A program made the position numbers and the translations under genes. From positions 346,635 to 410,634 of IMG/VR virus record IMGVR_UViG_3300031133_000383: DNA of 64,000 nt; one strand, given 5' to 3'. The number at the start of each line of letters is the position of its first letter. The stretch's first letter is position 1. Source of the stretch: a virus. Lineage: Duplodnaviria; Heunggongvirae; Uroviricota; Caudoviricetes. Positions 28,506 to 46,984 of this stretch are shown here, in pieces. The notes under the pieces are model-generated. The model had not been told where the DNA came from and searched no databases. It was given only the letters and a program-made list of their open reading frames with translations.

Positions 28506-28589
28506 GCCCGAGTGGTGGAATGGTAGACGCGGTGGATTCAAAATCCTCTGTCGAAAGACGTGCCGGTTCGAGTCCGGCTTCGGGCACCA
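28506..28589 (+). tRNA. tRNA-Leu(CAA)
   Basis: Cloverleaf, loop TT-CAA-AA, long variable arm, CCA. Confidence 0.95.
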
Positions 28590-28597
28590 AATTTATA

Positions 28598-28750
28598 TTT
28601 TAACTGTTGAAAAGAGATGCTGTGCTAATACCAGTGTGGCAGTAGAGGTGGTGACCTATTACTTTATTGCATGATGTTAGCAGGGTTATGAAAGTCACTA
28701 TAATAGTTAAGGGTTGGTAGTAATGCATTTTCAATCTCTCTATGCATTAT
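28598..28750 (+). ncRNA. Double-pseudoknot RNA family A, copy 1
   Basis: Homologous to 28770-28930 with compensatory stems. Confidence 0.75.
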
Positions 28751-28769
28751 GACTTTTATTGTTGGTAAG

Positions 28770-28930
28770 GTTTCAATTGTCGAAAAGAGATGCAGTGGTA
28801 ACACCCAAGCGGTGATAGAATTGGTGACCTATTATTTTATCACACGATGTTGCCATTAGTCAGGAAAGTCACTATAACAATTGAGACAGCAGTAGATGTG
28901 TTGTGTGCTTTAAATCTCTTTGTACACTGC
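28770..28930 (+). ncRNA. Double-pseudoknot RNA family A, copy 2
   Basis: Homologous to 28598-28750. Confidence 0.75.
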
Positions 28931-28976
28931 ATGCTGGACTACTGATTTGTAACGCAGGTTTTTATCCCTGCATTCT

Positions 28977-29065
28977 ATTTTGTTTAGGCTTGTAGCTCAG
29001 ATGGTAGAGCGGAGGGCAGAAACCCTCGCGTCGGAGATTCGATTTCTTCCTCGCCTAGACAAAAT
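28977..29065 (+). ncRNA. tRNA-like RNA with 6-nt anticodon loop (CAGAAA), extended acceptor stem, no CCA
   Basis: TAGCTCAGATGGTAGAGC D-arm, GAGGG/CCCTC stem, TTCGATT T-loop, TTTTGTTTAGGC/GCCTAGACAAAA closing stem. Confidence 0.7.
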
Positions 29066-29220
29066 TTTTTATTTTTAATCAATCAAAGATGACAGCTATT
29101 TGAACTCTGGATTGGTGTAATGATTTTTTTCAACAACCTTGAGCTTGATGTTTTCAAAAAAGAAATCATGGTTAAAAATCTTGACTTCTTTAGCATCTGA
29201 TGCTAATATAACCACACAAA

Positions 29221-29304
29221 GCCCGAGTGGTGAAATGGTAGACGCGGGGGACTTAAAATCCCCTTCCTTACGGAGTGCCGGTTCGAGTCCGGCCTCGGGC
29301 ACCA
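29221..29304 (+). tRNA. tRNA-Leu(TAA)
   Basis: Cloverleaf, loop CT-TAA-AA, long variable arm, CCA. Confidence 0.95.
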
Positions 29305-29312
29305 AATTTTAT

Positions 29313-29386
29313 TTCTCGTTAGTTTAACGGTAGAACAGCGGCCTCTAAAACCGTGTATGCGGGTTCGAATCCCGCACGAGGAACCA
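29313..29386 (+). tRNA. Amber tRNA (anticodon CTA)
   Basis: TTCTCGT/ACGAGGA acceptor, loop CT-CTA-AA (CTA at 29345-29347), GCGGG-TTCGAAT-CCCGC, ACCA. Confidence 0.85.
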
Positions 29387-29393
29387 GTATCAT

Positions 29394-29470
29394 GGGACTT
29401 TAGCTCAGTTGGTTAGAGCGTCCGACTCATAATCGGCAGGTCGTAGGTTCAAGTCCTACAAGTCCCACCA
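29394..29470 (+). tRNA. tRNA-CAT (probably Ile2, lysidine type)
   Basis: Cloverleaf, CT-CAT-AA, Ile-like D-arm, CCA. Confidence 0.9.
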
Positions 29471-29547
29471 AATTATCAAAAATTGTCTATATATTGTATA
29501 TTTCCTTTAATCAGGACAATTTGTTGCTACATCCTCTGAGGTGCCAA

Positions 29548-29898
29548 ATGAATTCAATTGATGTGAATAAAATAACCCCATCTTGGTATGTCAAAGATAA
29601 TATTCTTTTTTTAGATATTCATTATTGGAAACGTAACGAAACAACAGAAGGCCACTGTGGAAGCACTCTAATTTGGAGGAAGACTATCATAAATGGCAAT
29701 CTGATCGCCGCTTATAATTCCATAGTAAAATCAGCTAAAAAATATTTTGATTTACCCTACCTTAAAAAAATCAAGGTGGATAAGTCACCTGCAGTAACGC
29801 CTATTGATGAAAATCATGACTTTGATTTCTATCATCCTCTAGTAGTTTTTTTTATCGGGGTGCTTGTCGGTATGATTTTTATTAAAATGTTGAATTAA
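29548..29898 (+). CDS. Hypothetical protein with C-terminal TM
   Basis: GAGGT RBS before MNSIDV. Confidence 0.7.
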   Translation: MNSIDVNKITPSWYVKDNILFLDIHYWKRNETTEGHCGSTLIWRKTIINGNLIAAYNSIVKSAKKYFDLPYLKKIKVDKSPAVTPIDENHDFDFYHPLVVFFIGVLVGMIFIKMLN

Positions 29899-29932
29899 CT
29901 TTTTAATTTCGATACAGTATGGATATCTATTA

Positions 29933-31135
29933 ATGACAAACCGCCTTGAACTACTGTTAGCGAATACGCCTATTGAATCTGTTTTTGATCATTCAGATTT
30001 TAGTGTTGTTACAGAAGCTGCTAATGTAGGCGAAGTCAGTTTCAATCATTTTGATTTTTTAACTGATAAATCGTATACCGCTACTACCTTTTTCACTGGT
30101 CTTGTTCAATCTCTTTCTTTTATCTTTCCAAATTTTACGATTTCCGAAATTAAAAGTTTAAGTTCTACGGCTTACTTTTACTTTGACATTTTCCCATTTC
30201 CTCAGATTATGAATGATATGCATGCTTCTAATTTCAAAGTGCATGTACTTAATCGAAAAGATACAGTTCGTGTAAATTTCAACCTCTTTACTCTTTCGTT
30301 TCGTTTTAAAAAATGGATTTTTAGTTTTAGTGATACGTTCAAAAAAGAACAGGAAATGGAATCCATTTCTTTTGTTAATATTCATACTGCTATGCTGAGA
30401 TCTTTTAAAGAATTGATTTCAGATGTCATGATTAAGCCACCTCTATTATTTAATAATGCAATCTTCAAGAAAATTATTGAAAATAAATCTAACTTTTCCT
30501 TTAACTCCATGCGTTATGAAGATGTTTTTACACACGAAACTGATGTCAATTTTTCTAGGCATATTAAAAAAATTCAACCGTTGATGATTGTAGGCGATCT
30601 TCGCTCTATCAAGGGTGTTGCTCAACCAGCTATGTTGTATGTAAAAGGTGATATTCGCGTAACTCGTAATGTTTTGAATGTTGCTAAATCAAGTGAAACA
30701 CAAGTATATTTTCGTTATGAATCCCTTGATTTTATAGACTCGCTATTTTCAGTGACTTTTTCTTCTGAGCAACTATCTTCTTTACGAAAGATACTTAATT
30801 TGATTAACAAGATTAATATTTGTTTTGAAAAAGAAGCGTATTCAGGTATTGAAGTCATTCGTATTAACAATTCCAAAAAAGCTATTTATAATTTGATTAA
30901 AGAAAAAAATGCATTTCATATTACATTTGGTAGAACTAGTATTCATATCAATCGTTATATTGAATGCTCTATAATTATTAATAATTCATACCAATCTATC
31001 AAAGTTGAAAGTTTTGAAGAAGCTTTTAATTGTATTTATCAGGCATTCGCTGTACACGTTGCTAATTATTTTAATATTGATCAAAGCCTAGTGAATGATG
31101 ACTATATCAACTTATTGGAAATGGTTCGTCATTGA
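29933..31135 (+). CDS. Hypothetical protein with C-terminal INLLEMVRH motif
   Basis: 400-aa ORF. Confidence 0.8.
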   Translation: MTNRLELLLANTPIESVFDHSDFSVVTEAANVGEVSFNHFDFLTDKSYTATTFFTGLVQSLSFIFPNFTISEIKSLSSTAYFYFDIFPFPQIMNDMHASNFKVHVLNRKDTVRVNFNLFTLSFRFKKWIFSFSDTFKKEQEMESISFVNIHTAMLRSFKELISDVMIKPPLLFNNAIFKKIIENKSNFSFNSMRYEDVFTHETDVNFSRHIKKIQPLMIVGDLRSIKGVAQPAMLYVKGDIRVTRNVLNVAKSSETQVYFRYESLDFIDSLFSVTFSSEQLSSLRKILNLINKINICFEKEAYSGIEVIRINNSKKAIYNLIKEKNAFHITFGRTSIHINRYIECSIIINNSYQSIKVESFEEAFNCIYQAFAVHVANYFNIDQSLVNDDYINLLEMVRH

Positions 31136-31193
31136 CTTTTTTTTATAATTTTATATACTTCTTTTATTTTTATAATATTATTTCGGAGAATAT

Positions 31194-31901
31194 ATGATTA
31201 AAATTATGGAGTATATTGGCCCAGTCTTTACTGTAAATAATCCTCGATATAAACTAGTGCCTATTGAAGAAACAATACAATCTGCCTGTGTCAATGATGA
31301 CTGTATCAATTATCATCAGCCTCTTTTTGATGGTGTCTTTTGTCCTTTTTGTGGGATGAAAGGAGAGTCTTTTTCTTATACAGTTGATCGTTATTTAACA
31401 CAAGAACTTGTTCCCGAAGATGAACAATGTAATCTCTATCTCAAAGCAATAGAACTAGAATCCAGAACGCTTCGTTTTATTCCAAAATTCAAGTCTTATC
31501 AATATAGCCCAAGTTTTTCGTTAATTCATTTTGTTTCAAAAAAATGTTCAAATTATACTTGCCAAGACAACAACCACGAATATCATGATGATTATGATTT
31601 TTGTTATCAGTGTGGATCTAAACTTTCAAATAATATTGATTCTCAACAAAATACTATATTTATTGATGATATTTTAAAAGAACAGAAAAATCAAATATCC
31701 TTAATTTTATGTGATTCAATAGAACATTATGTTCTGCATAATTTGGATGAATTGATTTCAACACCGTTATTTGATCAGTTTATTATTGATTTCATGAACA
31801 GAAAAGAATACAAATCAATTATTAAAGAACTTGAATATATTTATGGTACAGGTACAGTTGTTGTTGAAAATAGACATATAACTTATCGACCAGATATTTA
31901 A
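31194..31901 (+). CDS. Double zinc-ribbon protein
   Basis: C-x4-C...CPFCG and C-x4-C...CYQCG. Confidence 0.75.
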   Translation: MIKIMEYIGPVFTVNNPRYKLVPIEETIQSACVNDDCINYHQPLFDGVFCPFCGMKGESFSYTVDRYLTQELVPEDEQCNLYLKAIELESRTLRFIPKFKSYQYSPSFSLIHFVSKKCSNYTCQDNNHEYHDDYDFCYQCGSKLSNNIDSQQNTIFIDDILKEQKNQISLILCDSIEHYVLHNLDELISTPLFDQFIIDFMNRKEYKSIIKELEYIYGTGTVVVENRHITYRPDI

Positions 31902-32073
31902 GAATTCTCTGTTATTTATGAATACATATTGAATTTTTAAGAGGATGGGAAAAATATCTTGACCTTTAGTAAAAATCTTGATATTATTATAGGTATTAAA
32001 GCCTACAGCAGGTTTCCTATGGAGTATGCTAAGTGTTTAATGCATACAACTAACTGTTACTGCTGTTTATTTT

Positions 32074-32147
32074 GCGGAATTGGTCTAGTGGTTGGGCCGT
32101 AGCCTTCCAAGCTACAGAGACGAGTTCGATCCTCGTATTCCGCTCCA
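32074..32147 (+). tRNA. tRNA-Gly(TCC)
   Basis: GCGGAAT/ATTCCGC, CT-TCC-AA, U73, CCA. Confidence 0.95.
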
Positions 32148-32304
32148 AATTTCAACAATGTGGTGGTAAAACAGCCCTATCTAAAAAAAATAAATATCCG
32201 ATGAATAATTAAAGCCTCTAAAAGAGGCTTTTTTATTGTCTTTAGTCTTCTTCTATTATATATTATATGTTAATATTATCATCTATTTTCATAGGCATTT
32301 AAAA

Positions 32305-33324
32305 ATGGCAACAACATTCTTTCACTTTTTATTTTACTTTTTATTTCCAGAATATGTAAAATTCAACAAGATTAAATACAAAGTACGTCGAAAATTTACA
32401 TTTACAAAGGTTATTTATTATGCAAAATTTGATAATTATTTTTTGAAAATTTCATATTCATATGTAGATGTTATTAAATCTATTTTTTTCAAAAAAGATT
32501 TTGAAAATTTAAATTTTTGTCTTTGGTATAAAGATATTTGCATTACACGAGTTAATTTGAAACATACTTATACAAGTATCTTTGTTAATAATTATGATAT
32601 TATTTTTTACTCTATACAATATTTAAATGATTTTATTAGTTGTTTAGAGCAAAATGTAACATCTGATAACTTATTGGAAATTTGTAATCAATTAATCGAT
32701 ATTCCTTCACCTGAGTTTATTATGTTTACATTTTACTATCAAAACTCTTATTCAATACGGTTTCCAAGTTATTCTAATGTCCCATTTTTCGGTTCAGTTT
32801 CAGACACTGAATCTTTTCATGATTTATGTGTTCTTATTTATGATAAATTTATTTATTTTAATAACTTTGAATCATTAAATAATAAAGATACCGTAGTAAA
32901 AGCTATGAAAGTATATCAAACATTGCAGACAATTTATTCTAAATACTCCATATCTGTCAATCGTTTTTCTAGACCTGAGAGTGGTCTTGTATTTCTAACA
33001 TGTATCAGTTATGGTTCAACAGATGTATCTACAAATGATTTTTTAATTTTAGATTTAGATAACAAAACAGGTATTCTGTTTATCAATTTTTGGAGCGATA
33101 GCTACCTCTTTAATGTTGGTTTTACTTCCTCATCTTTACCTGAATTAGTTCGTCTTGTTATGCAGTATCATGCTGGCGTTTATTTGATGATAAATAAATC
33201 ACCTATTATTGAGAATAGTGAAAAGCCTTATTTTTATAGTAATTTTAATAGTGAGTTCGATTATAAATTTGATAAGATGGATGACTCAATGTTAGATATA
33301 ATTCAAATGATGCATTTAAAATGA
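32305..33324 (+). CDS. Hypothetical protein with C-terminal LDIIQMMHLK motif
   Basis: Start moved to MATTFF. Confidence 0.7.
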   Translation: MATTFFHFLFYFLFPEYVKFNKIKYKVRRKFTFTKVIYYAKFDNYFLKISYSYVDVIKSIFFKKDFENLNFCLWYKDICITRVNLKHTYTSIFVNNYDIIFYSIQYLNDFISCLEQNVTSDNLLEICNQLIDIPSPEFIMFTFYYQNSYSIRFPSYSNVPFFGSVSDTESFHDLCVLIYDKFIYFNNFESLNNKDTVVKAMKVYQTLQTIYSKYSISVNRFSRPESGLVFLTCISYGSTDVSTNDFLILDLDNKTGILFINFWSDSYLFNVGFTSSSLPELVRLVMQYHAGVYLMINKSPIIENSEKPYFYSNFNSEFDYKFDKMDDSMLDIIQMMHLK

Positions 33325-33395
33325 AATTTTCAAATTTTTAACAAGTCTTTCTTAATATGTTGACTTTAGTTAATATCTACTGTATTATTGCGTCT

Positions 33396-33491
33396 TATTG
33401 GATTGAGATGACGCTGAAATCGCCTCACAGAAAGGGCAGATCATCTTGTGGTATAGCGGCGATTGAATGGGTTCGAGGCCCATGTCCGATA
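33396..33491 (+). ncRNA. tRNA-like small RNA (acceptor stem + T-arm, atypical D/anticodon region)
   Basis: TATTGGAT/GTCCGATA, ATGGG-TTCGAGG-CCCAT, AATCGCC/GGCGATT; TTGACT-17-TATTAT promoter. Confidence 0.55.
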
Positions 33492-33628
33492 CTGAATTGA
33501 ATGATTTAGACATTTGGTTTAAATCGTAATTATATAGAAGCATAAACAAAAAAAATAAGCACCACATACTTTTTATTAGGAAAATGGTGCTGTATTTTAA
33601 ACTATAATTTTTTAATCTTGGAAAATAT

Positions 33629-34276
33629 ATGATTATAGAAAATGATGTCGTAAATTATATAGATTCTTACTTTAAAAAAAAGTTTAAAAATGTCAAATTG
33701 TATAATCCTACCGTCACTTTATTTTCATCGTTACAAAATCAGGACGCACCTCATCGGTCTTATTCAGCTAAAATGACTATCGATGATAAACCTATAAATT
33801 TCTTAGTCTATTATACTTTAAAAGATAATGAAGAAGGTGTTTTGTATCTAAACTCTATTAAAGTTAGTTTTATTAAGCAAGATATTAATCTTGTACTAAG
33901 TTTTATTCGCTCTATGGGACAATTAAAAAACTCTTCTGTTTTGGAAGATGTTAATACTTATCTCCTTAATATCTATAATTCAAATCTTCCACAAAAAATC
34001 AATATCAACTTTCTTCAAAATTTTCATTTAAATAATATTCTTGTTCATAATGAAATCCGCATATACGACCTAAAAGATAACTTATCAGAAAATGAACATT
34101 CTGATTTTTTGATTGCTACTCATATTGGTCGTAAAAGTTCCATTTTAACTGATTTATCTTTGCCAGCTTTACCAAAATACGGTTCTGCAAATGTAGATGA
34201 AATCAGAAGCTTCCTTGATGCCTACCAGATTATAAAAAACGAAATTTTTGAATTGTTTAAGATCAACAGTTATTAG
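33629..34276 (+). CDS. Hypothetical protein (variant C-terminal FELFKINSY)
   Basis: ORF track; ends TAG. Confidence 0.75.
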   Translation: MIIENDVVNYIDSYFKKKFKNVKLYNPTVTLFSSLQNQDAPHRSYSAKMTIDDKPINFLVYYTLKDNEEGVLYLNSIKVSFIKQDINLVLSFIRSMGQLKNSSVLEDVNTYLLNIYNSNLPQKININFLQNFHLNNILVHNEIRIYDLKDNLSENEHSDFLIATHIGRKSSILTDLSLPALPKYGSANVDEIRSFLDAYQIIKNEIFELFKINSY

Positions 34277-34503
34277 TTTATTCATATGCTATTGAAATTA
34301 TCCATTTAAGAACACCGAAAAGATTGTTGTCTTTTTCTATATTTTTTGGTATAATTACTTCCTATTCAAAGAGGAATGACCATTATGAACAAGATTATTT
34401 CTGCTATTGTTTTTGCACTGGCTTTTTCATCTTTCAATGCTAATGCAATGATTGATGTTTCGGACAAAAAATAAACCGTCACCTAATTCAAGAGGCACTA
34501 CTA

Positions 34504-34977
34504 ATGTCAAAATCTATTCAGACAGCATCCACTATTGCTGATATGACTTATGAACAGAAAATTGAATATTTCTTATTTGATGATGGTTCTGTTTCCGGTC
34601 TGCGTTACAAAGAGCGTAGTAAATTTTGGAGAAGCATGGGGTTGTGGGAGGGTGGTTATTTTCCTGAACTGCATCAGGTTGCCTTGAAACTCATGATGTA
34701 TAAGGGTAATAAAGACAACCTTGATCAGACTATTAACTCGATCTCTGATATTTTACCTTTTCTGAAAGAATATCAAGGCATCAAACAGTTGGGTGTTTTT
34801 GAGCACACTCTTTCTGAAAATGGTCGATTCATTGTCGAGATTTCGGCATCGTCATATGAATTGGTTCTTTATCGCTATCATCGTCGCAGCGTTATAAAAG
34901 CATTTGATGACTTGCGTTCTTTGGTTGAATATGTTCAAGAATATCATTACTATGAAAATTCTATGATTGCAGAATGA
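34504..34977 (+). CDS. Hypothetical protein
   Basis: GAGG RBS. Confidence 0.8.
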   Translation: MSKSIQTASTIADMTYEQKIEYFLFDDGSVSGLRYKERSKFWRSMGLWEGGYFPELHQVALKLMMYKGNKDNLDQTINSISDILPFLKEYQGIKQLGVFEHTLSENGRFIVEISASSYELVLYRYHRRSVIKAFDDLRSLVEYVQEYHYYENSMIAE

Positions 34978-35124
34978 TTTAACAGTGCAAAAAACTGTTG
35001 ACGTGTAGATGTTTTTTTGATACTATAGCTTTATTGAAACAGCGAAACAACCAGCTAAAAAGTTTTGAAAAAGATGTTGCTAAGGTTTGTGTTTTGTGTT
35101 AGAATGACAGCATGAAATGAATAC

Positions 35125-35254
35125 GGAGCCTGTCAGCGAACAGGTTGGGTGGTAGCGGTGTCGCGGGCAAGCCATCACAGTGAAAGTTACATTGATGCAG
35201 GGGTTGCATTGATTAAAACGATTGGGCGAATCGGTTTCTTTCACAACTTAATTT
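35125..35254 (+). ncRNA. Structured RNA family B, copy 1
   Basis: GGAGCC...TGATTAAAACG...AACTTAATTT; covarying hairpins vs other copies. Confidence 0.8.
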
Positions 35255-35298
35255 GATAATAGGTAGTAGTTGTTGTACTGTCTAGTTTGAAGAGATAT

Positions 35299-35428
35299 GG
35301 AGCCTGTCTACAAGCAGGTTGGGTGGTAGCGGTGTCGCGGGCGAACCATCGACGTGAAAGATTCATTGATGCGGGGAAGGCATTGATTAAAACGGTTAGG
35401 TGGACCGGCTTCTTTCACAACCTAATTT
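35299..35428 (+). ncRNA. Structured RNA family B, copy 2
   Basis: Tandem homolog ending 2 nt before tRNA-Cys. Confidence 0.8.
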
Positions 35429-35430
35429 AT

Positions 35431-35504
35431 GGCTGCTTGGCAGAATGGTCATGCACCGGATTGCAAATCCGAGTATGGGGGTTCGATTCCCTCAGCAGCC
35501 TCCA
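35431..35504 (+). tRNA. tRNA-Cys(GCA)
   Basis: GGCTGCT/AGCAGCC, TT-GCA-AA, U73, CCA. Confidence 0.95.
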
Positions 35505-35647
35505 ACACAAAAGACTTCTTCGGAAGTCTTTTTTTTATTTCAATATATACACAGTATGAATACATATAATTTAATAAATGTTCATTTGTAATTGTATATT
35601 GTCATTCTCATGATTCTTTGCTATAATAGCCTTAGCTTATCAATGGT

Positions 35648-36178
35648 TTGAGGGATTCCATGGACTTTACAAATATCGACAAAATTGATCATCAGTTCAT
35701 TCAGGCCCATGAACTTAAATCTGCCGATCTTCTAAAATACCTTTTTGGAGAGCTTACAGAAATTTCTCTCTATTATCCTGATTTTTATGCATGGCTGACC
35801 AACACAGTTATGCCCGGTTTGATTTCAGGAGAACGTAGCATTATTCTTGAGCATCGTCATGGCGAATTGGCAGGGGTTGCGATCTTGAAGGATAGTGTTG
35901 ATGAGCAAAAGTTATGTTGTCTGCGAGTCATTCCTAAATTTCAGGGTATAGGCATTGGCTTGAAACTGTTTGAGAGATCTTTTAATGAGCTTGACACTGA
36001 TAAACCTCTTTTATCTATTGCAGAGGAAAACACTCATAAATTTAAAAAGATTTTAGCTTATTATGGATTTCAACTGGAAGAAGAGTATTCTGATCTTTAT
36101 CGCCTGAATAAGACTGAATTTAGTTTCAATGGCGTCTTGCTTGTTCCTAAAGAAAAAAAATGGAATATTGATCAATGA
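35648..36178 (+). CDS. GNAT acetyltransferase
   Basis: KLCCLRVIPKFQGIGIGLKL. Confidence 0.85.
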   Translation: MRDSMDFTNIDKIDHQFIQAHELKSADLLKYLFGELTEISLYYPDFYAWLTNTVMPGLISGERSIILEHRHGELAGVAILKDSVDEQKLCCLRVIPKFQGIGIGLKLFERSFNELDTDKPLLSIAEENTHKFKKILAYYGFQLEEEYSDLYRLNKTEFSFNGVLLVPKEKKWNIDQ

Positions 36179-36236
36179 CTTGCTTAATTCGTGGTTTTTT
36201 GATAATATAAGACTATCACTACAGAAGGTAATCAGA

Positions 36237-36416
36237 ATGAACAGTCTCTTTAAGCTTTCTCATAACAAACAATTCAAAACTGCGATGAATAAAACTTTTG
36301 AACAGTTTCAAAATATGACAACTGAAGAATTTTTTGCATTAGCTAGGAAACATTCTCCTGATTCTTCTTCAAGAGATGCGTCATCAATTTCAAAATCAGA
36401 CATAGTTATTCAATAA
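36237..36416 (+). CDS. Small hypothetical protein
   Basis: AAGGT RBS before MNSLFK. Confidence 0.55.
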   Translation: MNSLFKLSHNKQFKTAMNKTFEQFQNMTTEEFFALARKHSPDSSSRDASSISKSDIVIQ

Positions 36417-36781
36417 TTGCACTTTCTTTTTTTTGTCAATTGATGGCTCCAATCAATCAACTCAGCTATTTCTTGCTTAGGAAAATCGTAATCCAATAAC
36501 ACTGTAATCCAGTGTTTTTTATTCATATGATACGCAGGCAATATATAAGGCTGAATTCTTAATATGCTATTGAATTCAGGATTGCCCTTTAGATTGATAA
36601 TATCTACATCACCTTCTTCATTTATTCCTAATTTTCGCTTTTCTATTGTCATTATTAAACCATACCATTTTCCGTCACTATTTCTTAAGACGGCACAAGA
36701 AGGATGTTTCAAAAATAAATATTCAGGTTCTGTATTGTATTTTTCTTTTACATATTTAAAAATTTCTTGTCTGCTTATCAT
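36410..36781 (-). CDS. MmcQ/YjbR family DNA-binding protein
   Basis: YVKEKY..PEYLF, KWYG, NLK..P, PAYHMNKKHWITV. Confidence 0.9.
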   Translation of the reverse strand: MISRQEIFKYVKEKYNTEPEYLFLKHPSCAVLRNSDGKWYGLIMTIEKRKLGINEEGDVDIINLKGNPEFNSILRIQPYILPAYHMNKKHWITVLLDYDFPKQEIAELIDWSHQLTKKRKCNY

Positions 36782-38217: not shown

Positions 38218-38525
38218 TACACTTTTTCTTTCGGAGATTTTTTATGCTAAATTCTAAACAAGGCATTTTGACAGAATCAGGATTTTATTTCATGTTAAAA
38301 TTGAGTGTGCAATTAATGATTCTGTTGGCCATGACGAGACCCTTTCAGTGTTCATTAAATCTAATAAAGAGAATATGGTTGCCATTGTGACTCAACATAT
38401 CAATGGTCAGGTTGATCAAACCATTCTCCGGGGGAAAAATTCGTTAAAGGCACTTAAAAATTTTCTTTAAAAAAGCTTTGACATAAGTAAGAGATTTTGA
38501 TATACTTATCTCATTGAAGCAGACA

Positions 38526-38740
38526 AGGGGTTGAGCATCAAAGGCTCAATGATAATCCAGCGAGGTCGGGGCGTGGATTAGGTGCCAATGATGGCACAAG
38601 GTTGATTGAGGTTTGATGAGAGTCAAGCCTATGTAGAAATGGCGAAAGCCAGTTCAGTAGCGAGTACTTCAAAGCTATTATGGTTTTCAAGGAAAGTGGG
38701 TCACTCAGGTACTCCCAACTTACTCGCCAGCCCTGATTTA
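38526..38740 (+). ncRNA. Structured RNA family C, copy 1 (~215 nt)
   Basis: Homologous to 41718-41929 with compensatory changes; between promoter and tRNA-Pro. Confidence 0.8.
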
Positions 38741-38741
38741 A

Positions 38742-38819
38742 CGGAGTGTAGGTTAGTCTGGTTATACCGCTTGCTTTGGGAGCAAGATGTCGCAGGTTCA
38801 AATCCTGCCACTCCGACCA
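38742..38819 (+). tRNA. tRNA-Pro(TGG)
   Basis: CGGAGTG/CACTCCG, TT-TGG-GA, CCA. Confidence 0.95.
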
Positions 38820-38832
38820 ATTTTTGTTTTGT

Positions 38833-38911
38833 AGCGAAGTAGAGAAGTCTGGCTGTTCTCGCTAGCCTCATAAGCTAGAGATCGGGGGTTCAAATCCCTC
38901 CTTCGCATCCA
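38833..38911 (+). tRNA. tRNA-Met(CAT), 1:72 mismatch
   Basis: AGCGAAG/CTTCGCA, CT-CAT-AA, CCA. Confidence 0.9.
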
Positions 38912-39002
38912 ATTGAAAAGCTAACAGCAATGTTAGCTTTTTTTTATTCTCTTTTTTGACATAGCTAAATTTTCGTATAAAATTACAGCAGTCTATAAGG
39001 AA

Positions 39003-39497
39003 ATGTTGATGATCGAGAGGAAAGAAAACCTTACTTCACTTTTTAAATTACTTTTGTTCTTTTTTGGTTTTGCGATGTTAATTGTATCGCTATTGACCAG
39101 CTATAACTATTTACGACATATTCCACAAGATATAGGCGAATATACATATACAAATAATACATTATTTTTTAAATTAGAACCCAAAAAGTTATTCTTTATT
39201 ACACTGCCTGAATCCTTGACTGAATATGAACTCATTTTGCCGAAAGATGCTAAATTTAATACCAATGATAAACTTTCTATTGTATTCTTAAGAGGTGTAA
39301 AACCACCTCCAGAAGATTTAAAAGCAAATGCAATGTATATACGGTATCATGTTAAACCTATAGAAATCAATCCTATAAAAGAAATTAACCTTTTTGTTAA
39401 TGACACATTACAATATGATTTAAAAGATAAACTGGTCTTAAAGATAATTGATAAAGATCCTAAAACAGGTGAGGTTTCTATCTCTGTTTTCGAGTGA
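39003..39497 (+). CDS. Membrane-anchored hypothetical protein
   Basis: N-terminal TM. Confidence 0.75.
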   Translation: MLMIERKENLTSLFKLLLFFFGFAMLIVSLLTSYNYLRHIPQDIGEYTYTNNTLFFKLEPKKLFFITLPESLTEYELILPKDAKFNTNDKLSIVFLRGVKPPPEDLKANAMYIRYHVKPIEINPIKEINLFVNDTLQYDLKDKLVLKIIDKDPKTGEVSISVFE

Positions 39498-39585
39498 TTT
39501 CACTCTTTTTAATTATTTTTGCATTAAAGGACCTTCTATGTTATACTTAAATCCTTAATTAAAGCCTCTATTTGGAGAATATAGA

Positions 39586-39975
39586 ATGAATGAAAACCAA
39601 GAAAATGAGATAATTTCCGCAGAAGAATGTACGATTAACTTTGTATTTAAAGAAGAACGCATTCGTGGAACTAAGAAGTTTAAATGTGTAGTGGTTGCAG
39701 AAGATGCCGATGCACCTGATCAGGAGATTTCAGACCGTATTGAAGCTTCTAGTTGGGCAGTTATGAAACAAACCTATCCTACTTTAAAGGATTTGGTTGA
39801 GCATATGTTTTGGTCTGAAAACTGGCAGGTTTGTGGTCATGGGCATGATGAACGTTATCTTATTCTGACAGGATGCTCTGGTCATGAGGGTATTTATGAC
39901 TATGTAGAAGGTGATGACATTCGGGTTCTTTGGTCAGATATCAAAGAAAATGATATTGTTTACCCAAAAGAGTAG
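39586..39975 (+). CDS. Hypothetical protein
   Basis: GGAG RBS; ends TAG. Confidence 0.8.
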   Translation: MNENQENEIISAEECTINFVFKEERIRGTKKFKCVVVAEDADAPDQEISDRIEASSWAVMKQTYPTLKDLVEHMFWSENWQVCGHGHDERYLILTGCSGHEGIYDYVEGDDIRVLWSDIKENDIVYPKE

Positions 39976-40029
39976 AATTTTTTTTGTGGTTTTGATATAC
40001 TTCAACAAATCTCAAATAGGAGTCATCTA

Positions 40030-40452
40030 ATGACTGTTAGTACGCAAGAAGAAATTAATGTATTGATGGCTGAATGTTCGAAACTTGAATCTCAGTTGCG
40101 GGCGAAGCGTGAAGCCCTTGAAATGGCTGTCATAAGCAAATTGACTGCCGATGGCAAGCAGCATCCGTTGTCTTCATTTTTGGGAAAGGTTGCCACCTAT
40201 GACCGTCCTCATAAATGGCAAGACCCTAGTTCGTCTGTATTGACCGAAGATGATTTGAAGAATTACAGCTATCTCAGTTTTAATGGCATTGTAACAGGTG
40301 CTCAGGTTAACTCCTTGTATCATGAGCCTCGATATGACGATAATGACACCTTTTATAGTTTTGCCATTGCAGAAGAATGGTCAGAAATTCCGAAGGGTCA
40401 TTACATTCCGATTGAAGAAGTGTATGAGATGTTGATTTTTAAAATACAATAA
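40030..40452 (+). CDS. Hypothetical protein
   Basis: AGGAG RBS. Confidence 0.8.
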   Translation: MTVSTQEEINVLMAECSKLESQLRAKREALEMAVISKLTADGKQHPLSSFLGKVATYDRPHKWQDPSSSVLTEDDLKNYSYLSFNGIVTGAQVNSLYHEPRYDDNDTFYSFAIAEEWSEIPKGHYIPIEEVYEMLIFKIQ

Positions 40453-40644
40453 ATAGCAGATAAGAGAATATCAAATACTGCGAATTGGTTTGATGGTGTG
40501 TTCTAAATAAAAGCTGAAGAAGCTTTATCTTATCAATGTTTAATTAGTCATTTTTAAATCAATAAATAAAACTTTATGTATGTCATTTATTGATTTTTTT
40601 GTAATTTATGTTATATTCTATACAACAAATAAAGAGGATATTCT

Positions 40645-40959
40645 ATGTCTAATGTTTCCCAAGCCACTTCCAACTTCCAGCAAAAATTCAGTCCAGAAGC
40701 TGCAAAAGGACTTGATGTTGTTTTTCAATTTAATATCAGTGATGCTGATAATTTTTACCTTGTTATAAAAGATAGTATCTGTACCCTTGTAGAAGGTGAT
40801 AATGAAGATGCAAATGTTGTCTTGGTGGCAGATTCTCAAACATTGCTAGATTTATCTGATGGTAGTCTTGATGGCATGCAAGCTTTTATGGCGGGTAAAC
40901 TTCGTATCGAAGGGGATATGATGTTGTCAATGAAACTTCATGAACTTTTCCCTGTTTAA
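40645..40959 (+). CDS. SCP2 sterol/lipid-binding domain protein
   Basis: F.PEAAKGLDVVFQF...LDGMQAFMAGKLRIEGDMML. Confidence 0.9.
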   Translation: MSNVSQATSNFQQKFSPEAAKGLDVVFQFNISDADNFYLVIKDSICTLVEGDNEDANVVLVADSQTLLDLSDGSLDGMQAFMAGKLRIEGDMMLSMKLHELFPV

Positions 40960-40973
40960 AGGAGTTTCTTGCC

Positions 40974-41501
40974 ATGTCCTTACCTTATGTTGCTCCTTTG
41001 GACAGGGTTTTCTTTTTGACAGCTACTAACGAACTTAATACTATAAAAGAGTCAAAAGATAGAATGGAGCAAATTCAGAAACGAGCTTTATATGTTTTTG
41101 ACAAGATTGCTGAAATCTATGATCGTTCTTATTCGTGGGTTACTTATGACAACTGCAATCTTGAAATTGAAGGTTCGGCAGGTAAATATGACTATGAGCG
41201 TTATCTTGAAGAATTCAAGTTTTATAGTGACCTCGATGATGCTGAATACCTTAATCGTATCATTCCTCTTTATTATAACAGTTTTCCATCTCGTTTTATT
41301 TATACTGATTTTGAAGATGAAGTCACTGCTGAACTTCAAGAATTTAAAAACAATGCTGATAAAAAACGTCAGAAATCAAAAGACAAACGTGAACGTCTTA
41401 AAAAAAGAGAGATTGAGCGAGCGAAGATCAGGCCAGACATCATCACGTCTATTACCGCTAAATTAACAGAAGAAGAACTTTCTTTTATTCTATTCAAATA
41501 A
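40974..41501 (+). CDS. Hypothetical protein with C-terminal coiled coil (AKLTEEE)
   Basis: AAGGAG RBS. Confidence 0.8.
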   Translation: MSLPYVAPLDRVFFLTATNELNTIKESKDRMEQIQKRALYVFDKIAEIYDRSYSWVTYDNCNLEIEGSAGKYDYERYLEEFKFYSDLDDAEYLNRIIPLYYNSFPSRFIYTDFEDEVTAELQEFKNNADKKRQKSKDKRERLKKREIERAKIRPDIITSITAKLTEEELSFILFK

Positions 41502-41717
41502 TTTGCAAAAAAAATTAAGAAAGAGTTGCAGTCTATCGTTTTTTGTTGTAGAATAGCCTCATTGAAAAGAAGACATCTGCAAGCGGCTTGAACCGTTGGA
41601 AGAAAGAGGAAAGGCTAACCATCCTACTTGCATGTTTATGATATAATTTTCAAAATTCTAAAAAAACGTTTGACATCTGAAATGAGTTTTGATATAGTTA
41701 TCTCATTGAAACAAATA

Positions 41718-41929
41718 AGGGATTGAGTGTTTAAGGCTCAATGTTAATTCAGTGTGGTCGGGGCGTGAATTAAGTGCTAGTGGCACATGGTTAATTGAAG
41801 CTTGATAAAATCAAGCTTATGTAGAAATGGCGAAAGCCAGTTCAGTAGCGAGTCCTTTAAAGCCCGTTTTGGTTTTCAAGGAAAGTGGGTCACTCAGGCA
41901 ATCCCATCTTACTCGTCAGTCCTGATTTA
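41718..41929 (+). ncRNA. Structured RNA family C, copy 2
   Basis: Homologous to 38526-38740; between promoter and tRNA-Asn. Confidence 0.8.
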
Positions 41930-41931
41930 AT

Positions 41932-42007
41932 TGGTAAATAGCTCAGTCGGTAGAGCAGGTGACTGTTAATCACCGGGTCGTAGGTTCGAGTCCTACTTTA
42001 CCAGCCA
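41932..42007 (+). tRNA. tRNA-Asn(GTT)
   Basis: TGGTAAA/TTTACCA, CT-GTT-AA, G73, CCA. Confidence 0.95.
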
Positions 42008-42034
42008 TATTTTATAGATACAAGAGATTAGATA

Positions 42035-42247
42035 ATGAGCAGATCGGTCAGAGGTTCTAAGGGTAGTGGTTACGACTACTGGGGCAAACGTGCAAAGAGT
42101 TGTTGTTCACCCGGTCGTGTCAATAAGAAGTTGACGTTGGGTATTGAAAGAATGCGTGAACATCAACTGGTATCGTATGAACTTGATCTTGTTGCTGATG
42201 TTCATAACCACTTTGAACACGAAGTTCAAGTACTTAAAGTTTTGTAA
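42035..42247 (+). CDS. Small basic protein inside tRNA operon (MSRSVRGSKGSGYDYW)
   Basis: ORF between tRNA-Asn and tRNA-Met. Confidence 0.7.
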   Translation: MSRSVRGSKGSGYDYWGKRAKSCCSPGRVNKKLTLGIERMREHQLVSYELDLVADVHNHFEHEVQVLKVL

Positions 42248-42262
42248 TTTAAAATGTTTTGA

Positions 42263-42339
42263 AGCGGGGTAGAGAAGCCCGGTAACTCACCAGTCTCATA
42301 AGCTGGAGATCGCAGGTTCAAATCCTGCCCCCGCAACCA
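42263..42339 (+). tRNA. tRNA-Met(CAT), initiator-like acceptor
   Basis: AGCGGGG/CCCCGCA with 1:72 mismatch, CT-CAT-AA, ACCA. Confidence 0.9.
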
Positions 42340-42438
42340 CTTCGGACACCTAGCGTGTCCACCTGTGAAGAACAACACAGAGGCGATTTAGCCTGAATCA
42401 AACGACTGTGAGTAAACACAGTTTTTAAAAATCATTAT

Positions 42439-42514
<76 letters not shown>

Positions 42515-42527
42515 GATTTGTAGTTTT

Positions 42528-42603
42528 GTCCTTTGTAGCTCAGATGGTAGAGCGGGCGTTAGAAGACGCCGCGTCATAGGTTCGATTCCTATCGGGGACA
42601 CCA
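42528..42603 (+). ncRNA. tRNA-like RNA with 6-nt anticodon loop (TAGAAG), bulged acceptor stem, encoded CCA
   Basis: GTCCTTTG/CGGGGAC, GGCGT-TAGAAG-ACGCC, ATAGG-TTCGATT-CCTAT, ACCA. Confidence 0.75.
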
Positions 42604-42609
42604 TTTAGA

Positions 42610-42637
42610 AACCATGCTTCGGCATGGTTTTTTGCTT
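42610..42637 (+). terminator. Intrinsic terminator, identical to 44212-44239
   Basis: AACCATGC-TTCG-GCATGGTTTTTT. Confidence 0.85.
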
Positions 42638-42709
42638 TAGCTTTAAAGTAACTTTACATGTCTTGATGATTTTAATATAATGTAATCCGTTTGTTAATGA
42701 GGCTATTTT

Positions 42710-43042
42710 ATGAAAACAACACTTCCTGCTGTTCTGTTTATTATTGGTTTGGTTGGTCTTACTGGCACGAGTCCTTCTAAGGCTGCTGTTGTTGAAGATC
42801 GTGTTGAACGATTTTCAGCGTTTTGTGTGACGTATGATCGTGCTGTTATCAATGAAGATTCGGTAACAGATATTAAGCGTGAGCCAGATGGTTACATCAC
42901 CATGACAACGGAAGATAATCTTAAAATTATTACTGGTGGTGTTTGTACATTTAAGCAGCTTAAACCCAGTAAAAAAGTGACGGTGATTGAAGATAACGAA
43001 TTCCCAGAAGATGGTGAACCACTTTATTCTATTGGTCATTAA
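42710..43042 (+). CDS. Secreted hypothetical protein
   Basis: Signal-peptide-like N-terminus. Confidence 0.75.
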   Translation: MKTTLPAVLFIIGLVGLTGTSPSKAAVVEDRVERFSAFCVTYDRAVINEDSVTDIKREPDGYITMTTEDNLKIITGGVCTFKQLKPSKKVTVIEDNEFPEDGEPLYSIGH

Positions 43043-43088
43043 GGAATATTAATTTTCACCCTCTCTCACTTTCAATTAAGGAATTCGC

Positions 43089-44189
43089 ATGATTATTAAT
43101 TATCCCGTATTAATTAAAGCTATTTATGACAAGTGCCAAGAAGCCATTGCTTCTGGTGAAGACTGGAAATTTATGGAAAATAAGACTACCTTTGCTGTCT
43201 TTAAAAGTCATTTGCAAGAAGCTTTTAATGCGACCTTGATTGATTTTGGTGGTCATAACCATAACAACATGGCTGGTGACCCGCTGTCGGTTGTTGAACA
43301 AGAAGAACCTTGCATGTATGAGAAGATCAAAGAGCGAACAACACAAGCTTTGAAATATTTTGTGCGAGATATTTATAAAGCTATCAAAGAAAATCAGCCG
43401 TATGAAGATATTGAAAAATCCGTTCTTTTAAAACCCAGCTATTTTTATACGATGGCTATGTTGATTCAAGGCTCACCGGGCACTTATTGTTTTGTGTGCG
43501 GTAAAACCAATGGTCTTTATATGAAGGAAGGTGTTATTTCGCCGGGTTGTTTCATTGATCAGAATAGTCCATTGTGGGAACTGCTCCATGATGATTACAA
43601 AATCATGTTGCGTGGCGAAGAAGCTTCAGAAGATAAACTTTGTGCATATCCCGATGGCATTGAAAAATTTGAGCAATTCATGACCATTAAATCCGATTAC
43701 TTGGTGTTTGCGAATGACTTGCGGAGTGATGTTAAAGTTGACCCCATCGAATCACTTAAATACAGCACAGAGCGTTCTGGTTATTACAACACTATCAACT
43801 CTGATTTGGGTGCTATGTATGACCAAGAATACGCACTAAGCCTTGGCTTGCTCAAAGTGCAAACAGGCAATTCGTCTCCTGTTGTTGCTTACAATGCAAA
43901 AACTGGTGTTATCTTGGCCGCTGATCAACATGCTTGGAAACAAAAGAAACAATATCAGTTCCCACTGGATGTTGAAGGATTTAAAGCTAAATGCACGATT
44001 TGCACCGATGTTTGGACTGTTCAGGCAGTCGATAGCATTATTTACGAAGACTGTGCAAAAGAACAAGGTATTACGCTGAAAGAAGCTGCAGCACAAAATG
44101 GTGATATTATTCCAGTGACACCGGGAAAATATAAAATCACCACGTATACGGCTCCACCTGTCTTTTTCACTATTGAAAAAGTGGATTAA
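43089..44189 (+). CDS. Hypothetical phage protein (CxxC; FANDLR, GNSSP, CTDVW motifs)
   Basis: 366-aa ORF, AAGGA RBS. Confidence 0.85.
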   Translation: MIINYPVLIKAIYDKCQEAIASGEDWKFMENKTTFAVFKSHLQEAFNATLIDFGGHNHNNMAGDPLSVVEQEEPCMYEKIKERTTQALKYFVRDIYKAIKENQPYEDIEKSVLLKPSYFYTMAMLIQGSPGTYCFVCGKTNGLYMKEGVISPGCFIDQNSPLWELLHDDYKIMLRGEEASEDKLCAYPDGIEKFEQFMTIKSDYLVFANDLRSDVKVDPIESLKYSTERSGYYNTINSDLGAMYDQEYALSLGLLKVQTGNSSPVVAYNAKTGVILAADQHAWKQKKQYQFPLDVEGFKAKCTICTDVWTVQAVDSIIYEDCAKEQGITLKEAAAQNGDIIPVTPGKYKITTYTAPPVFFTIEKVD

Positions 44190-44211
44190 GTCGTCATTTG
44201 ATTGTAAACAT

Positions 44212-44239
44212 AACCATGCTTCGGCATGGTTTTTTGCTT
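44212..44239 (+). terminator. Intrinsic terminator
   Basis: Identical to 42610-42637. Confidence 0.85.
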
Positions 44240-44364
44240 CAGGTTCAGATTAATTTTACTAGAAATCGAATTCATAGACTTCATTTTTTCCATAAAATAT
44301 TAAATTAAATTGCATTTTTATCATTTCTTGATATAATGCAGTATCTTATTAAAGGTAAATAGCT

Positions 44365-45267
44365 ATGACTATCTCAGAATTACGTTTCACTGGATTCAAA
44401 GACTCAAATGGTCTAGATATACATGAAGGTGACTATCTAATTCTCAAACTCAGTGATCTTTCCAAAGATGAAATTAAACAACGTACGTTAAATATCATGA
44501 TGGACGCTTATGATATTCAATACATGCAAGCTTACATCAAACCTACTGGTCAACTTCGTTATGACCTTGACGTTATTTATGTTAATGGCAACAATCGGGC
44601 GTTAACTTCTGTAGAATATGCTTTTATTTATGAACAGCATGATATGAGCAAGGAAGAATTTTGGTTGGAATTTGCAAAAAACTCAAAACTTGACGAAATT
44701 GAAACATGTCCAAGCTTCCGTTATTTTTCTATGTTGAAAGGTATTGTTCAAACTCAGTTGTGGTCAAAATCACAACCGCTGGTTAATCGCGACCACGTTA
44801 AAGCGATGGATTTGCAATTGGTTGACAATCAACAAAATCCAATCACTCAGGGTCAACATTTTATGTTTACTGTCCCTGATGATGTTTTCAATGCTGCCCA
44901 TGACACTTTCTATGGTGGTAATCTTGGGCAGAACATGAGACAAATCGCCTGCCGCCATTATTTGTTTTATGTTATTCCTACTGAATTTTTGGCAGTGCGT
45001 TTGATGACGTGTTTTCTTAAAGATGACATGACACCTTTTACCATTGCAGAAGATGAAAAAATTTCTGGTCATGATGCTGAATATTTTAATCATGATGGTG
45101 TTGATCTCAATACTGTTGATAAACAGGAAGTATCCTTGTCTTATGCAGAAGACGCATTTACGTTTGTTCGTTATCTGATGAGTAAGGGCTGGTTGTCTCA
45201 TGAACCTAATCCAGCGATTGATTTGTCCAAATTTAAAGTTGGCTACAAACACTTTATCTCAGCCTGA
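44365..45267 (+). CDS. Protein with YopX-like N-terminal motif, possibly internally duplicated
   Basis: FTGFKDSNGLDIHEGD; second LVDNQQNPITQGQ unit. Confidence 0.65.
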   Translation: MTISELRFTGFKDSNGLDIHEGDYLILKLSDLSKDEIKQRTLNIMMDAYDIQYMQAYIKPTGQLRYDLDVIYVNGNNRALTSVEYAFIYEQHDMSKEEFWLEFAKNSKLDEIETCPSFRYFSMLKGIVQTQLWSKSQPLVNRDHVKAMDLQLVDNQQNPITQGQHFMFTVPDDVFNAAHDTFYGGNLGQNMRQIACRHYLFYVIPTEFLAVRLMTCFLKDDMTPFTIAEDEKISGHDAEYFNHDGVDLNTVDKQEVSLSYAEDAFTFVRYLMSKGWLSHEPNPAIDLSKFKVGYKHFISA

Positions 45268-45314
45268 TATAACCCGTTGATGCTCAATATAAAAAAGCCC
45301 TTTAAGGGATTTTT

Positions 45315-45779
45315 TTATATCTTCCTCTTTTTGATATTTTTTTTCTCAATCGCCTCTTGGGCTTTCACATATTCTTTTAATTCAATTGCTGTTTCGCTCG
45401 GATATGTCATAAAATACCCAGCAGATGTATTAACCAATTTTTCAAATCCTGCATTTTCATAGAATTTGTTTAGCACAAAATTTCGCACTTGATTTTCGTG
45501 TTTATCTGAAATCAACATAGCAAACTGAGAACCTGATATAGCATCTTCTAACAATCCTTTTCCAATTCCTTGTCCTCTATATTCTCGTTCTACATTTAAA
45601 TTTTTAATAACCGTTATTGACTGATATCCTTTGGCTTCAATGAAGTTTATGATGTGTTTCCTTTTAATATGATCGGCAATATTTTCCTCTAAAAAATTCT
45701 TGTAATTATCTTCGTCAACACTAACTGTGTAGCCCGATATACTTCCGCCATCTTCCTCTGATTCTATTACTTCGTACAT
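45315..45779 (-). CDS. GNAT acetyltransferase
   Basis: LNVEREYRGQGIGKGLL, KFYENAGF. Confidence 0.85.
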   Translation of the reverse strand: MYEVIESEEDGGSISGYTVSVDEDNYKNFLEENIADHIKRKHIINFIEAKGYQSITVIKNLNVEREYRGQGIGKGLLEDAISGSQFAMLISDKHENQVRNFVLNKFYENAGFEKLVNTSAGYFMTYPSETAIELKEYVKAQEAIEKKNIKKRKI

Positions 45780-46131
45780 TTGACATCCTCATAATTACCT
45801 GCCGTTTATATTATTATACATTTTTACCATGCTTTTACAATTTTGATTTTACAAAAAATTGTAGTTTCTGTCAAAAGCACGGATATTTTAAAGGTATCTA
45901 GATAATGAGTATTAAACAATTATTTGAAAATAATCCAGCACTGGAGAAAGCTTATGCTTTTGTTTAAAGCTACAAAGAAGCTGATTGACATCCGCTCATA
46001 GATTAATCAAGGGGCGTTCTTTTTACTAAGCTTTGGTAATCTTTTAAAAAAGATTGAATGTTGACTTCTTTTTTGCTATAATATCCTTATTGAAAAGCAG
46101 TATCTATTCTTATTAAATAAAGGTTTCGCTT

Positions 46132-46359
46132 ATGTGCAGCAGAACTGACGCTGATGGTTTTCTTCCTTGTCCTTTTTGTGGTGGCACTGTTATCCATATG
46201 GAAACGTGGAGCCTCCAACGAGGTGAATGGCAAGGAAAAGTAACTAATGAATGTTGTGGCTATACGTTTATTGTCTTGAATGTGTATGGTTCTACCAAGA
46301 AAGAAGTTATCGAGTTCTACAAAAAAAAGTGGAACAAAAGGCCAGAAAAAGCTTGCTAA
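46132..46359 (+). CDS. Lar-like (restriction alleviation) zinc protein
   Basis: LPCPFCGG ... C-terminal KWNKR. Confidence 0.65.
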   Translation: MCSRTDADGFLPCPFCGGTVIHMETWSLQRGEWQGKVTNECCGYTFIVLNVYGSTKKEVIEFYKKKWNKRPEKAC

Positions 46360-46414
46360 GTGGTTTGAAATTTGATAAAATAGCTACATTGAAACAGAGC
46401 AGTGAACAGAATTC

Positions 46415-46577
46415 GGAGCCTGCGTGAAAGTGGGTTGGGTAGCAGCGGTGTTGCGGGCGAGCTACTACGAAGAGTGAGTCAGAAGCTGTGATTCCTCTTC
46501 ATGGGAATGGAGAATTGAAGTGTTGTTGGCTTTGATTAAAACGGCTGGGTGAGTCGGCTCCTTCCCAAACCTAATTT
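46415..46577 (+). ncRNA. Structured RNA family B, copy 3 (expanded central insert)
   Basis: GGAGCC...TGATTAAAACG...AACCTAATTT; own promoter. Confidence 0.75.
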
Positions 46578-46984
46578 AGTTGGAGTTGCTGGTTAATGTA
46601 TAGCTATTATACAAACGGTGACTCTTGATATGGTTAAGAGTGATGTAGTTTCCACTATACAACAGCGGGCAGAAATGGATAGTTGTCATCATACTGTACC
46701 CAATTAAAGAGCAATACCTACTGCAATAGAGACTGGGCTTTTGTAGTAGCAATTAGAATCCATCTCAGCAGATAGAGTGGAGCGATAGGCGTTATTTGAC
46801 CTTGACCTTTGAAGCGATGACATCTTGGTGGCTTGGTGGTGAAAAGTAACCACATATATTAAAGCAATCTGTTCAAAACAGGTTGCTTTTTTTTATAAAA
46901 ATCATAGTTAATTGTTAGTTTTCTTGTTTTTATTTTCTGCTTATGGTATAATCAATTTCCAATCTCTTACTAGGATTACTTATT

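Follow-up and report, generated by a model that had tools for sequence, protein, structure and literature searches.

The DNA analysed here (the window, 64,000 nucleotides) comprises bases 346635-410634 of a 437,043-bp IMG/VR virus record, which is estimated to be 98% complete and has a GC content of ~33%. ARAGORN and Rfam place 12 tRNAs at 28506-42603 of the window (13 tRNA genes lie in the window as a whole and 26 in the genome), and we found their operons to be interleaved with three mutually unrelated families of non-coding RNA, here called A, B and C (Table 1). This arrangement, claimed in a preliminary description of the same DNA, was borne out by repeat finding and pairwise alignment. 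Family A, ~135 nt long, is present as three copies and one half copy, family B (~230 nt) as two copies, and family C as two tandem copies of ~155-170 nt, beginning 9 nt after the CCA of tRNA-Leu(CAA). No other full-length copies were found elsewhere in the 437-kb genome. The flush placement that had been described was also observed, since A2 and the B copies end at tRNA 5' ends and C begins after a CCA. We are nearly certain that A, B and C are real, new and conserved structured RNAs, and we regard them as three new, unrelated families carried by a clade of uncultured phages with very large genomes.

None of the three families matched a known one. Rfam 15, searched over 27800-47300 at gathering thresholds and at E<=1 with relaxed filters, returned RF00005 (tRNA) alone and nothing on A, B or C. 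When 34900-42700 was compared at the DNA level with 50,697 phage records, the tRNAs alone gave matches, and exact and degenerate A, B and C motifs had no match in viral_contigs and genome_contigs. The sole annotated kin found were two jumbo phages of Xanthomonas, XacN1 and Xoo-sp13, with which a 778-aa protein is shared at 45% identity; families A and B are absent from XacN1, and a locus search by two phage proteins in IMG/VR returned no relatives. What we call relatives below are contigs of related uncultured phages reached via neighbouring proteins, which are 50-85% identical. Covariance models built for A, B and C were run on these contigs, and the metagenome scan covered the family A pattern.

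Family A consists of a 5' hairpin, a second hairpin with the near-invariant loop AGCGGUGUYGCGGGC, preceded by the invariant GGUUGGGU, an optional hairpin, and a three-way-junction domain with an invariant GAUUAAAAC joiner. This last domain stands alone at 61440-61515 and in relatives. The first degenerate A motif matched one metagenome contig of 677,834 bp, whose A locus, examined through a 4.9-kb Logan contig, shows conserved synteny with A3 and encodes an upstream protein 57% identical to its counterpart. More copies of A came from the covariance-model search of the relatives, and a pattern of the 3' domain matched five IMG/VR fragments, 64-193 kb in length, every one of which holds two complete copies in tandem. 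The alignment of 14 distinct sequences, fitted to the model, draws on this phage, the metagenome contigs L009, L026 and L028 and the IMG/VR fragments L085, L086, L090 and L092, the fifth fragment (L089) matching L085. In it, 95.9% of the cells are paired, against 27-46% with slid partners, and both sides have changed in 24 of the 35 pairs. The covariation score of 0.611, against 0.267, was reached by none of 500 shuffles, and the same helices were obtained from MAFFT/RNAalifold on six sequences. A T-box reading of A, raised by GGGUGGUA, was dropped, as this motif is not kept in A3 and Rfam gives no match. A 24-nt degenerate pattern of the P3 domain also occurs in 54 bacterial contigs (genome_contigs L030-L083), many of them from Bacteroidales (Parabacteroides, Tannerellaceae, Bacteroides); the model rejected these as members of family A, the best being a 30-bit partial match.

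Family B forms ~10 helices, including an invariant GAAA-capped hairpin, and some of its unpaired tracts, such as GGUCGGGGCGUG, are long and identical. Its single-sequence folds beat shuffles, with z values of -3.2 and -4.0. The covariance-model search of the relatives recovered a full copy at L023:2030-2260 (199.8 bits), where the order of B, tRNA-Pro, tRNA-Met and a 162-aa gene is that of the window; over the three sequences 97.6% of the positions are paired, with 10 double changes. The 3' domain of B is found alone in one more distant IMG/VR phage, directly upstream of a tRNA-shaped sequence that was read by eye and has no ARAGORN call. The near-consensus TTGACA-17-TATAnT promoter is duplicated together with B, ahead of each copy. 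Gain and loss of B are cassette-like. In L022, the promoter and initial transcribed bases of B1 run straight into tRNA-Met, with B and tRNA-Pro precisely absent. A different leader RNA, E, is complete in L022, while its 5' half lies upstream of B2 here; B2 and its promoter therefore replaced the rest. An RNase P RNA reading of B, based on a GGAAAGU block, was abandoned, since the block is not conserved in B3 and Rfam gives no match.

In family C, an outer helix surrounds two nested helices. One loop pairs downstream, and the loop of a 3' hairpin is paired with single-stranded sequence on the 5' side. A third copy lies at L024:7163-7325 (77 bits, E 4e-16), between tRNA-Arg(ACG) and tRNA-Leu(CAA); C thus follows different tRNAs in different phages, and across copies it starts 1-9 nt 3' of a tRNA CCA. 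The three sequences support 46 pairs including two pseudoknots, 97% paired, of which 23 show double changes. Both strands of both pseudoknots are altered in the third copy, from AGAGAU/AUCUCU to AGAAGU/ACUUCU in the first and from GUGAC/GUCAC to GCGAC/GUCGC in the second. C is absent from the five IMG/VR relatives carrying A. Because Rfam matches the tRNAs alone and the helices of these RNAs covary in relatives, the proposal of unexplained structured RNAs withstands the two objections that the preliminary description had itself raised, namely membership of a known Rfam family and a lack of covariation in homologs.

Table 1. Features of the window considered in this study, in order of position
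Feature	Position	Strand	Remarks
RNA ligase	8791..9885	+	PF09414 + PHA02142 OB fold
T4 Rnl1-family RNA ligase	16359..17564	+	PF09511
Operon 1 promoter	28466..28494	+	sigma-70-like (TTGACT-17-TAATAT, TG-extended)
tRNA-Leu(CAA)	28506..28589	+	CCA encoded; ARAGORN, Rfam
C copy 1	28598..~28755	+	four helices and two pseudoknots (AGAGAU/AUCUCU, GGUGAC/GUCAC)
C copy 2	28771..~28940	+	tandem with C1
X1	28986..29057	+	canonical D and T arms, 6-nt loop CAGAAA, two acceptor mismatches, no CCA
tRNA-Leu(UAA), tRNA(CUA), tRNA(CAU)	29221..29470	+	behind promoter 29181-29209
A copy 1	35121..35256	+	P1, P2 with invariant loop, three-way P3/P3a/P3b domain
A copy 2	35295..35430	+	tandem with A1; ends 1 nt before tRNA-Cys (35431)
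tRNA-Cys(GCA)	35431..35504	+	followed by terminator 35509-35532
B1 promoter	38478..38506	+	TTGACA-17-TATACT
B copy 1	38512..38741	+	multi-helix RNA, from inferred transcription start to first base of tRNA-Pro (38742)
tRNA-Pro(UGG), tRNA-Met(CAU)	38742..38942	+	includes terminator 38915-38942
Leader RNA E, 5' half	41540..41640	+	different leader RNA, conserved in L022
B copy 2	41704..41931	+	promoter 41670-41698; ends at tRNA-Asn (41932)
tRNA-Asn, 70-aa open reading frame, tRNA-Met, tRNA-Thr	41932..42514	+	
X2	42528..42603	+	6-nt loop UAGAAG, ACCA end, then terminator
75-aa Lar-like Zn-ribbon open reading frame	46132..46359	+	upstream of A here and in relatives
A copy 3	46410..46580	+	extra P2a hairpin, own extended -10 promoter, no adjoining tRNA
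Non-coding tail	46581..46889	+	~285 nt, ending in terminator 46861-46889
Half copy of A	61440..61515	+	P3 domain alone, then terminator

Two anticodon-defective tRNA mimics had been reported among the tRNAs, and X1 and X2 fit this account. They are paralogous cloverleaves with D and T arms that score above threshold with the Rfam tRNA model (40.4 bits for X1 and 31.4 bits for X2). In place of a 7-nt anticodon loop with U33 and a three-base anticodon, they carry a conserved 6-nt YAGAAR loop on a 5-pair anticodon stem, and ARAGORN calls X2 '???' with the 4-base anticodon AGAA. The acceptor stem of X2 has six pairs. Between X1 and X2, 8 of the 16 predicted pairs carry changes on either side that preserve the pairing. 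The anticodon and T stems are maintained although both of their strands have diverged, and the D arm is identical. Because the YAGAAR loop is conserved and both stems have been rebuilt by compensatory change, the comparison shows X1 and X2 to be, at the level of sequence, selected tRNA-shaped RNAs that would be unable to read a triplet in the ordinary way. If the closing pair opened, the loop would grow to 8 nt and place AGAA where the anticodon belongs; in X2, position 33 would then be U and position 37 a purine. Quadruplet decoding would therefore be an alternative to a decoy role. X2 is absent from the one relative covering that operon. A separate "T-arm RNA" listed in the preliminary description was not recovered, as the only T-loop motifs in 28506-46890 are those of the tRNAs and X2.

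Other tRNA-shaped RNAs occur in the relatives. In three of them, at four loci, the RNA that comes after A is a conserved tRNA-like one of ~165 nt (L026:8318-8469; L009:~1815-1975; L028:~5330-5495). Its acceptor stem has 7 bp, it keeps a T arm and it ends in ACCA; a short substitute takes the place of the anticodon hairpin, and a ~100-nt insert separates GCUC...GAGC. The L026 copy scores 33.7 bits on the Rfam tRNA model across 152 nt, and ARAGORN finds nothing there. An RNase P-type site therefore follows A even in these relatives. Another insert-bearing tRNA-like RNA, with its own promoter, is found at L092:~11960-12103 and L095:~1285-1452. A ~75-95-nt insert replaces its D and anticodon arms, and its acceptor stem has G3.U70, A73 and CCA, the alanine identity features that are used by transfer-messenger RNA too.

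A3 and its orthologues lie in loci without an ARAGORN tRNA, downstream of the 75-aa Lar-like open reading frame (ORF), whose Pfam match to the restriction-alleviation family (24.1 bits) is below the 28.6 cut-off. As read in the sequence, the A3 and L009 units have a promoter ahead and a terminator behind. At the A locus of two relatives, L026 and L027, an Rnl1 gene comes next, and further neighbours of A in relatives are an Acb1-like ORF (weak Pfam match; L010:3593-4000, L026:12319-12729) and genes for CinA and an AAA_33 kinase. Shuffled sequences fold as well as the stretch after A3 (46581-46860; z = 0.02), and the 285-nt tail gave no convincing alignment with the tRNA-like D RNA of the relatives.

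The two RNA ligases named in the preliminary description are present, both of them upstream of and outside the 28506-46890 stretch that it covered. A 69-nt direct repeat, 88% identical (16181-16248 and 16422-16490), brackets the annotated start of the Rnl1 gene. The amber tRNA was likewise confirmed: the tRNA(CUA) at 29313-29386 is a regular cloverleaf according to ARAGORN and Rfam. We dropped stop-codon recoding as the reason for this suppressor, since the standard genetic code fits the ORF statistics: TAG is the rarest stop triplet, and its read-through lengthens ORFs least among the three stops. The 437 kb hold no ORF above ~800 aa under any stop-codon reading, TAA read-through excepted, and terminase Pfam models had no match in this genome. 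The 70-aa ORF within the tRNA operon (42035-42247), between tRNA-Asn and tRNA-Met, has no Pfam match. A shared initial transcribed sequence (CAT(T/C)GAA(A/G)CAG-like) stands at many promoters in the window (38507-38521, 41699-41713, 46385-46400, 35025-35040) and in relatives (L022:190-200), regardless of what follows.

Elsewhere in the genome, a 1.6-kb inverted repeat of 90% identity (G000:C1:321694-323293 / 421231-422830), a 390-nt piece of which recurs at the record end (436653-437043), could be a mobile element or be related to the genome ends. Another non-coding repeat family consists of ~235-nt tandem copies with 79% identity (G000:C1:191021-191505) and a third, partial copy (G000:C1:187852-187941), beside the XacN1-like 778-aa gene.

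The closest precedent lies in T4, whose rnaC and rnaD (species 1 and 2 stable RNAs) are small, stable RNAs with a role that is still unknown (PMC3014915). In the T4 record, tRNA-Arg, rnaD (119 nt) and rnaC (139 nt) lie head to tail, and A, B and C are likewise found beside phage tRNAs. T4 also encodes Rnl1, like the Rnl1-family ligase of this phage. The analogy with rnaC and rnaD drawn earlier thus holds for the position beside a tRNA in a phage cluster and not for homology, where the models give noise: with filters off, none of the three exceeded 12 bits against T4 69000-74000, and over rnaC/rnaD they reached <=4.1 bits. Unlike the T4 RNAs, B is a 5' leader and A is able to stand alone.

GOLLD and ROOL, ornate RNAs of phages or prophages with unknown function, are ~580-800 nt long and often lie near tRNAs; their Rfam models gave no match, and A, B and C measure 135-230 nt. 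In E. coli, 3'ETS-leuZ is a functional spacer-derived RNA freed from a tRNA precursor by processing. RNAs of this type work through short antisense pairing and have hardly any structure, whereas A, B and C fold compactly and their helices covary. Imitation of the tRNA shape, as in X1, X2 and the D RNA of the relatives, is also known from YrlA, the Y RNA-like tRNA mimics (PMC4201824). The YrlA model RF02553, whose cut-off is 69, reached no more than 23.5 bits, in a partial match that falls on true tRNAs (no Rsr/Ro gene search was made). The classes described here are new by sequence and fold, while the genre of phage RNAs riding with tRNAs is already known from T4 rnaC/rnaD, GOLLD and ROOL.

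Considering all the above results, we think it probable that A, B and C are autonomous structured RNA genes which borrow tRNA processing, mainly RNase P, for the formation of their ends. Host-type (sigma-70-like) promoters would drive them, either by themselves or jointly with tRNAs. An RNase P cut at the 5' end of the downstream tRNA would set the 3' ends of A2, B1 and B2 and, in a relative, likewise that of C, while the 5' end of C would be set by 3' trimming of the upstream tRNA. To judge from the sequences, the three RNAs would be released as discrete stable molecules and would act in trans, as compact tertiary-folded RNAs binding a protein or small ligand. Autonomous genes fit better than tRNA-specific cis elements because the same RNA flanks different tRNAs or none, because one tRNA operon exists with and without the same RNA, and because pseudoknots and invariant unpaired blocks, which here run long among diverged helices, typify RNAs that bind something.

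Several points weigh against this reading. The A alignment was fitted to its model, which biases the pair counts towards structure and somewhat inflates them, and the B and C alignments hold three sequences each. The single-sequence folding energies of A and C are unexceptional (z ~ -0.8 to -1.2), and no partner protein or ligand of A, B or C is indicated. Moreover, B adjoins a tRNA 5' end in four of four cases, which fits a cis-acting leader as well. On that account, B and A2 would be leaders and C an inter-tRNA spacer, governing the order and efficiency with which precursor tRNAs are processed, or their stability, or shielding the transcripts from host nucleases, and none of the three would have a role after cleavage. 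C lies invariably beside tRNAs, and long leaders are found on other tRNAs too, here and in relatives. Nevertheless, A occurs in tandem and in loci without an ARAGORN tRNA, the same tRNA-Met operon is found with or without B in relatives, B stands ahead of three different tRNAs and C after different ones, and pseudoknots and invariant unpaired blocks of ~20 nt exceed the needs of a processing spacer. We therefore consider cis-acting leaders and spacers the main rival and a rather unlikely explanation of the three families.

A bolder interpretation would make C, and perhaps A or B, a new double-pseudoknotted class of ribozyme or aptamer within an RNA toolkit in which tRNA-shaped RNAs and ligases neutralise tRNA-targeting defences. 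X1, X2 and the CCA-ended tRNA-like RNAs of the relatives with inserts of ~100 nt would then be decoys or substrates, acting with Rnl1 and the second ligase. Two ligases, the Lar-like ORF (a weak contextual hint) and, in relatives, the Acb1-like ORF accompany these RNAs and make a counter-defence role plausible. No defence-related or catalytic signature was found for them, and none of the present analyses supported the roles put forward in the preliminary description, as decoys for tRNA-sensing or tRNA-cleaving defences, as translation controllers or as ribozymes. We regard the toolkit as a whole as unlikely.

New self-cleaving ribozymes that free tRNA ends, C foremost, would have a model in the HDV-like (hepatitis delta virus-like) theta ribozymes, which in phages associate with tRNAs, suppressor, Met and Leu tRNAs being frequent partners (PMC10879173). 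C is similarly a pseudoknotted RNA directly beside phage tRNAs in a genome with a suppressor tRNA; this double pseudoknot starts 1-9 nt after a tRNA CCA, and the amber suppressor lies 400 nt away. Theta ribozymes, however, are roughly 55 nt long and C is ~155 nt. Ribozymes of this type cut at their own 5' end, right next to a tRNA. The nested double pseudoknot of HDV, which has a catalytic C in J4/2, follows the order P1-P2-P3-P1-P4-P2, unlike that of C, which runs S1, PK2, S2, S3 (with PK1 in its loop), PK1 partner, S1 and S4 (PK2 partner). This helix order, taken from the covariation-supported structure, excludes an HDV/theta fold for C, and there is no Rfam match to HDV or any other ribozyme family. 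Since the copies are in tandem, most of C is not at a tRNA end, and no catalytic motif was identified. A ribozyme is thus quite improbable here.

Riboswitch-like sensors governing read-through into downstream tRNAs or genes would account for the conserved unpaired blocks and pseudoknots, which are typical of ligand-binding aptamers. Such a sensor is very unlikely, given that A2, B1, B2 and C are followed by neither an intrinsic terminator nor a sequestered ribosome-binding site, that the closing helix extends right to the tRNA, and that A3 is followed by a non-coding RNA rather than by a gene. Finally, functionless decaying duplicates or mobile-element remnants, which the cassette-like insertion, the deletion and the half copies might bring to mind, are hardly credible, because compensatory changes keep the helices intact across phages with proteins 50-85% identical.

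Stable RNAs in phage tRNA clusters have been a puzzle since T4, and three covariation-supported families with defined folds can now be set beside them. Their natural variants (tandem, half and stand-alone) and clear processing contexts make this old question testable by standard RNA biochemistry. The look-alikes with 6-nt loops and the insert-bearing, CCA-ended RNAs point to tRNA scaffolds as a base from which these phages construct RNAs. Altogether, the families add candidate ribozymes or aptamers from the barely sampled phages of 0.4-0.7 Mb.

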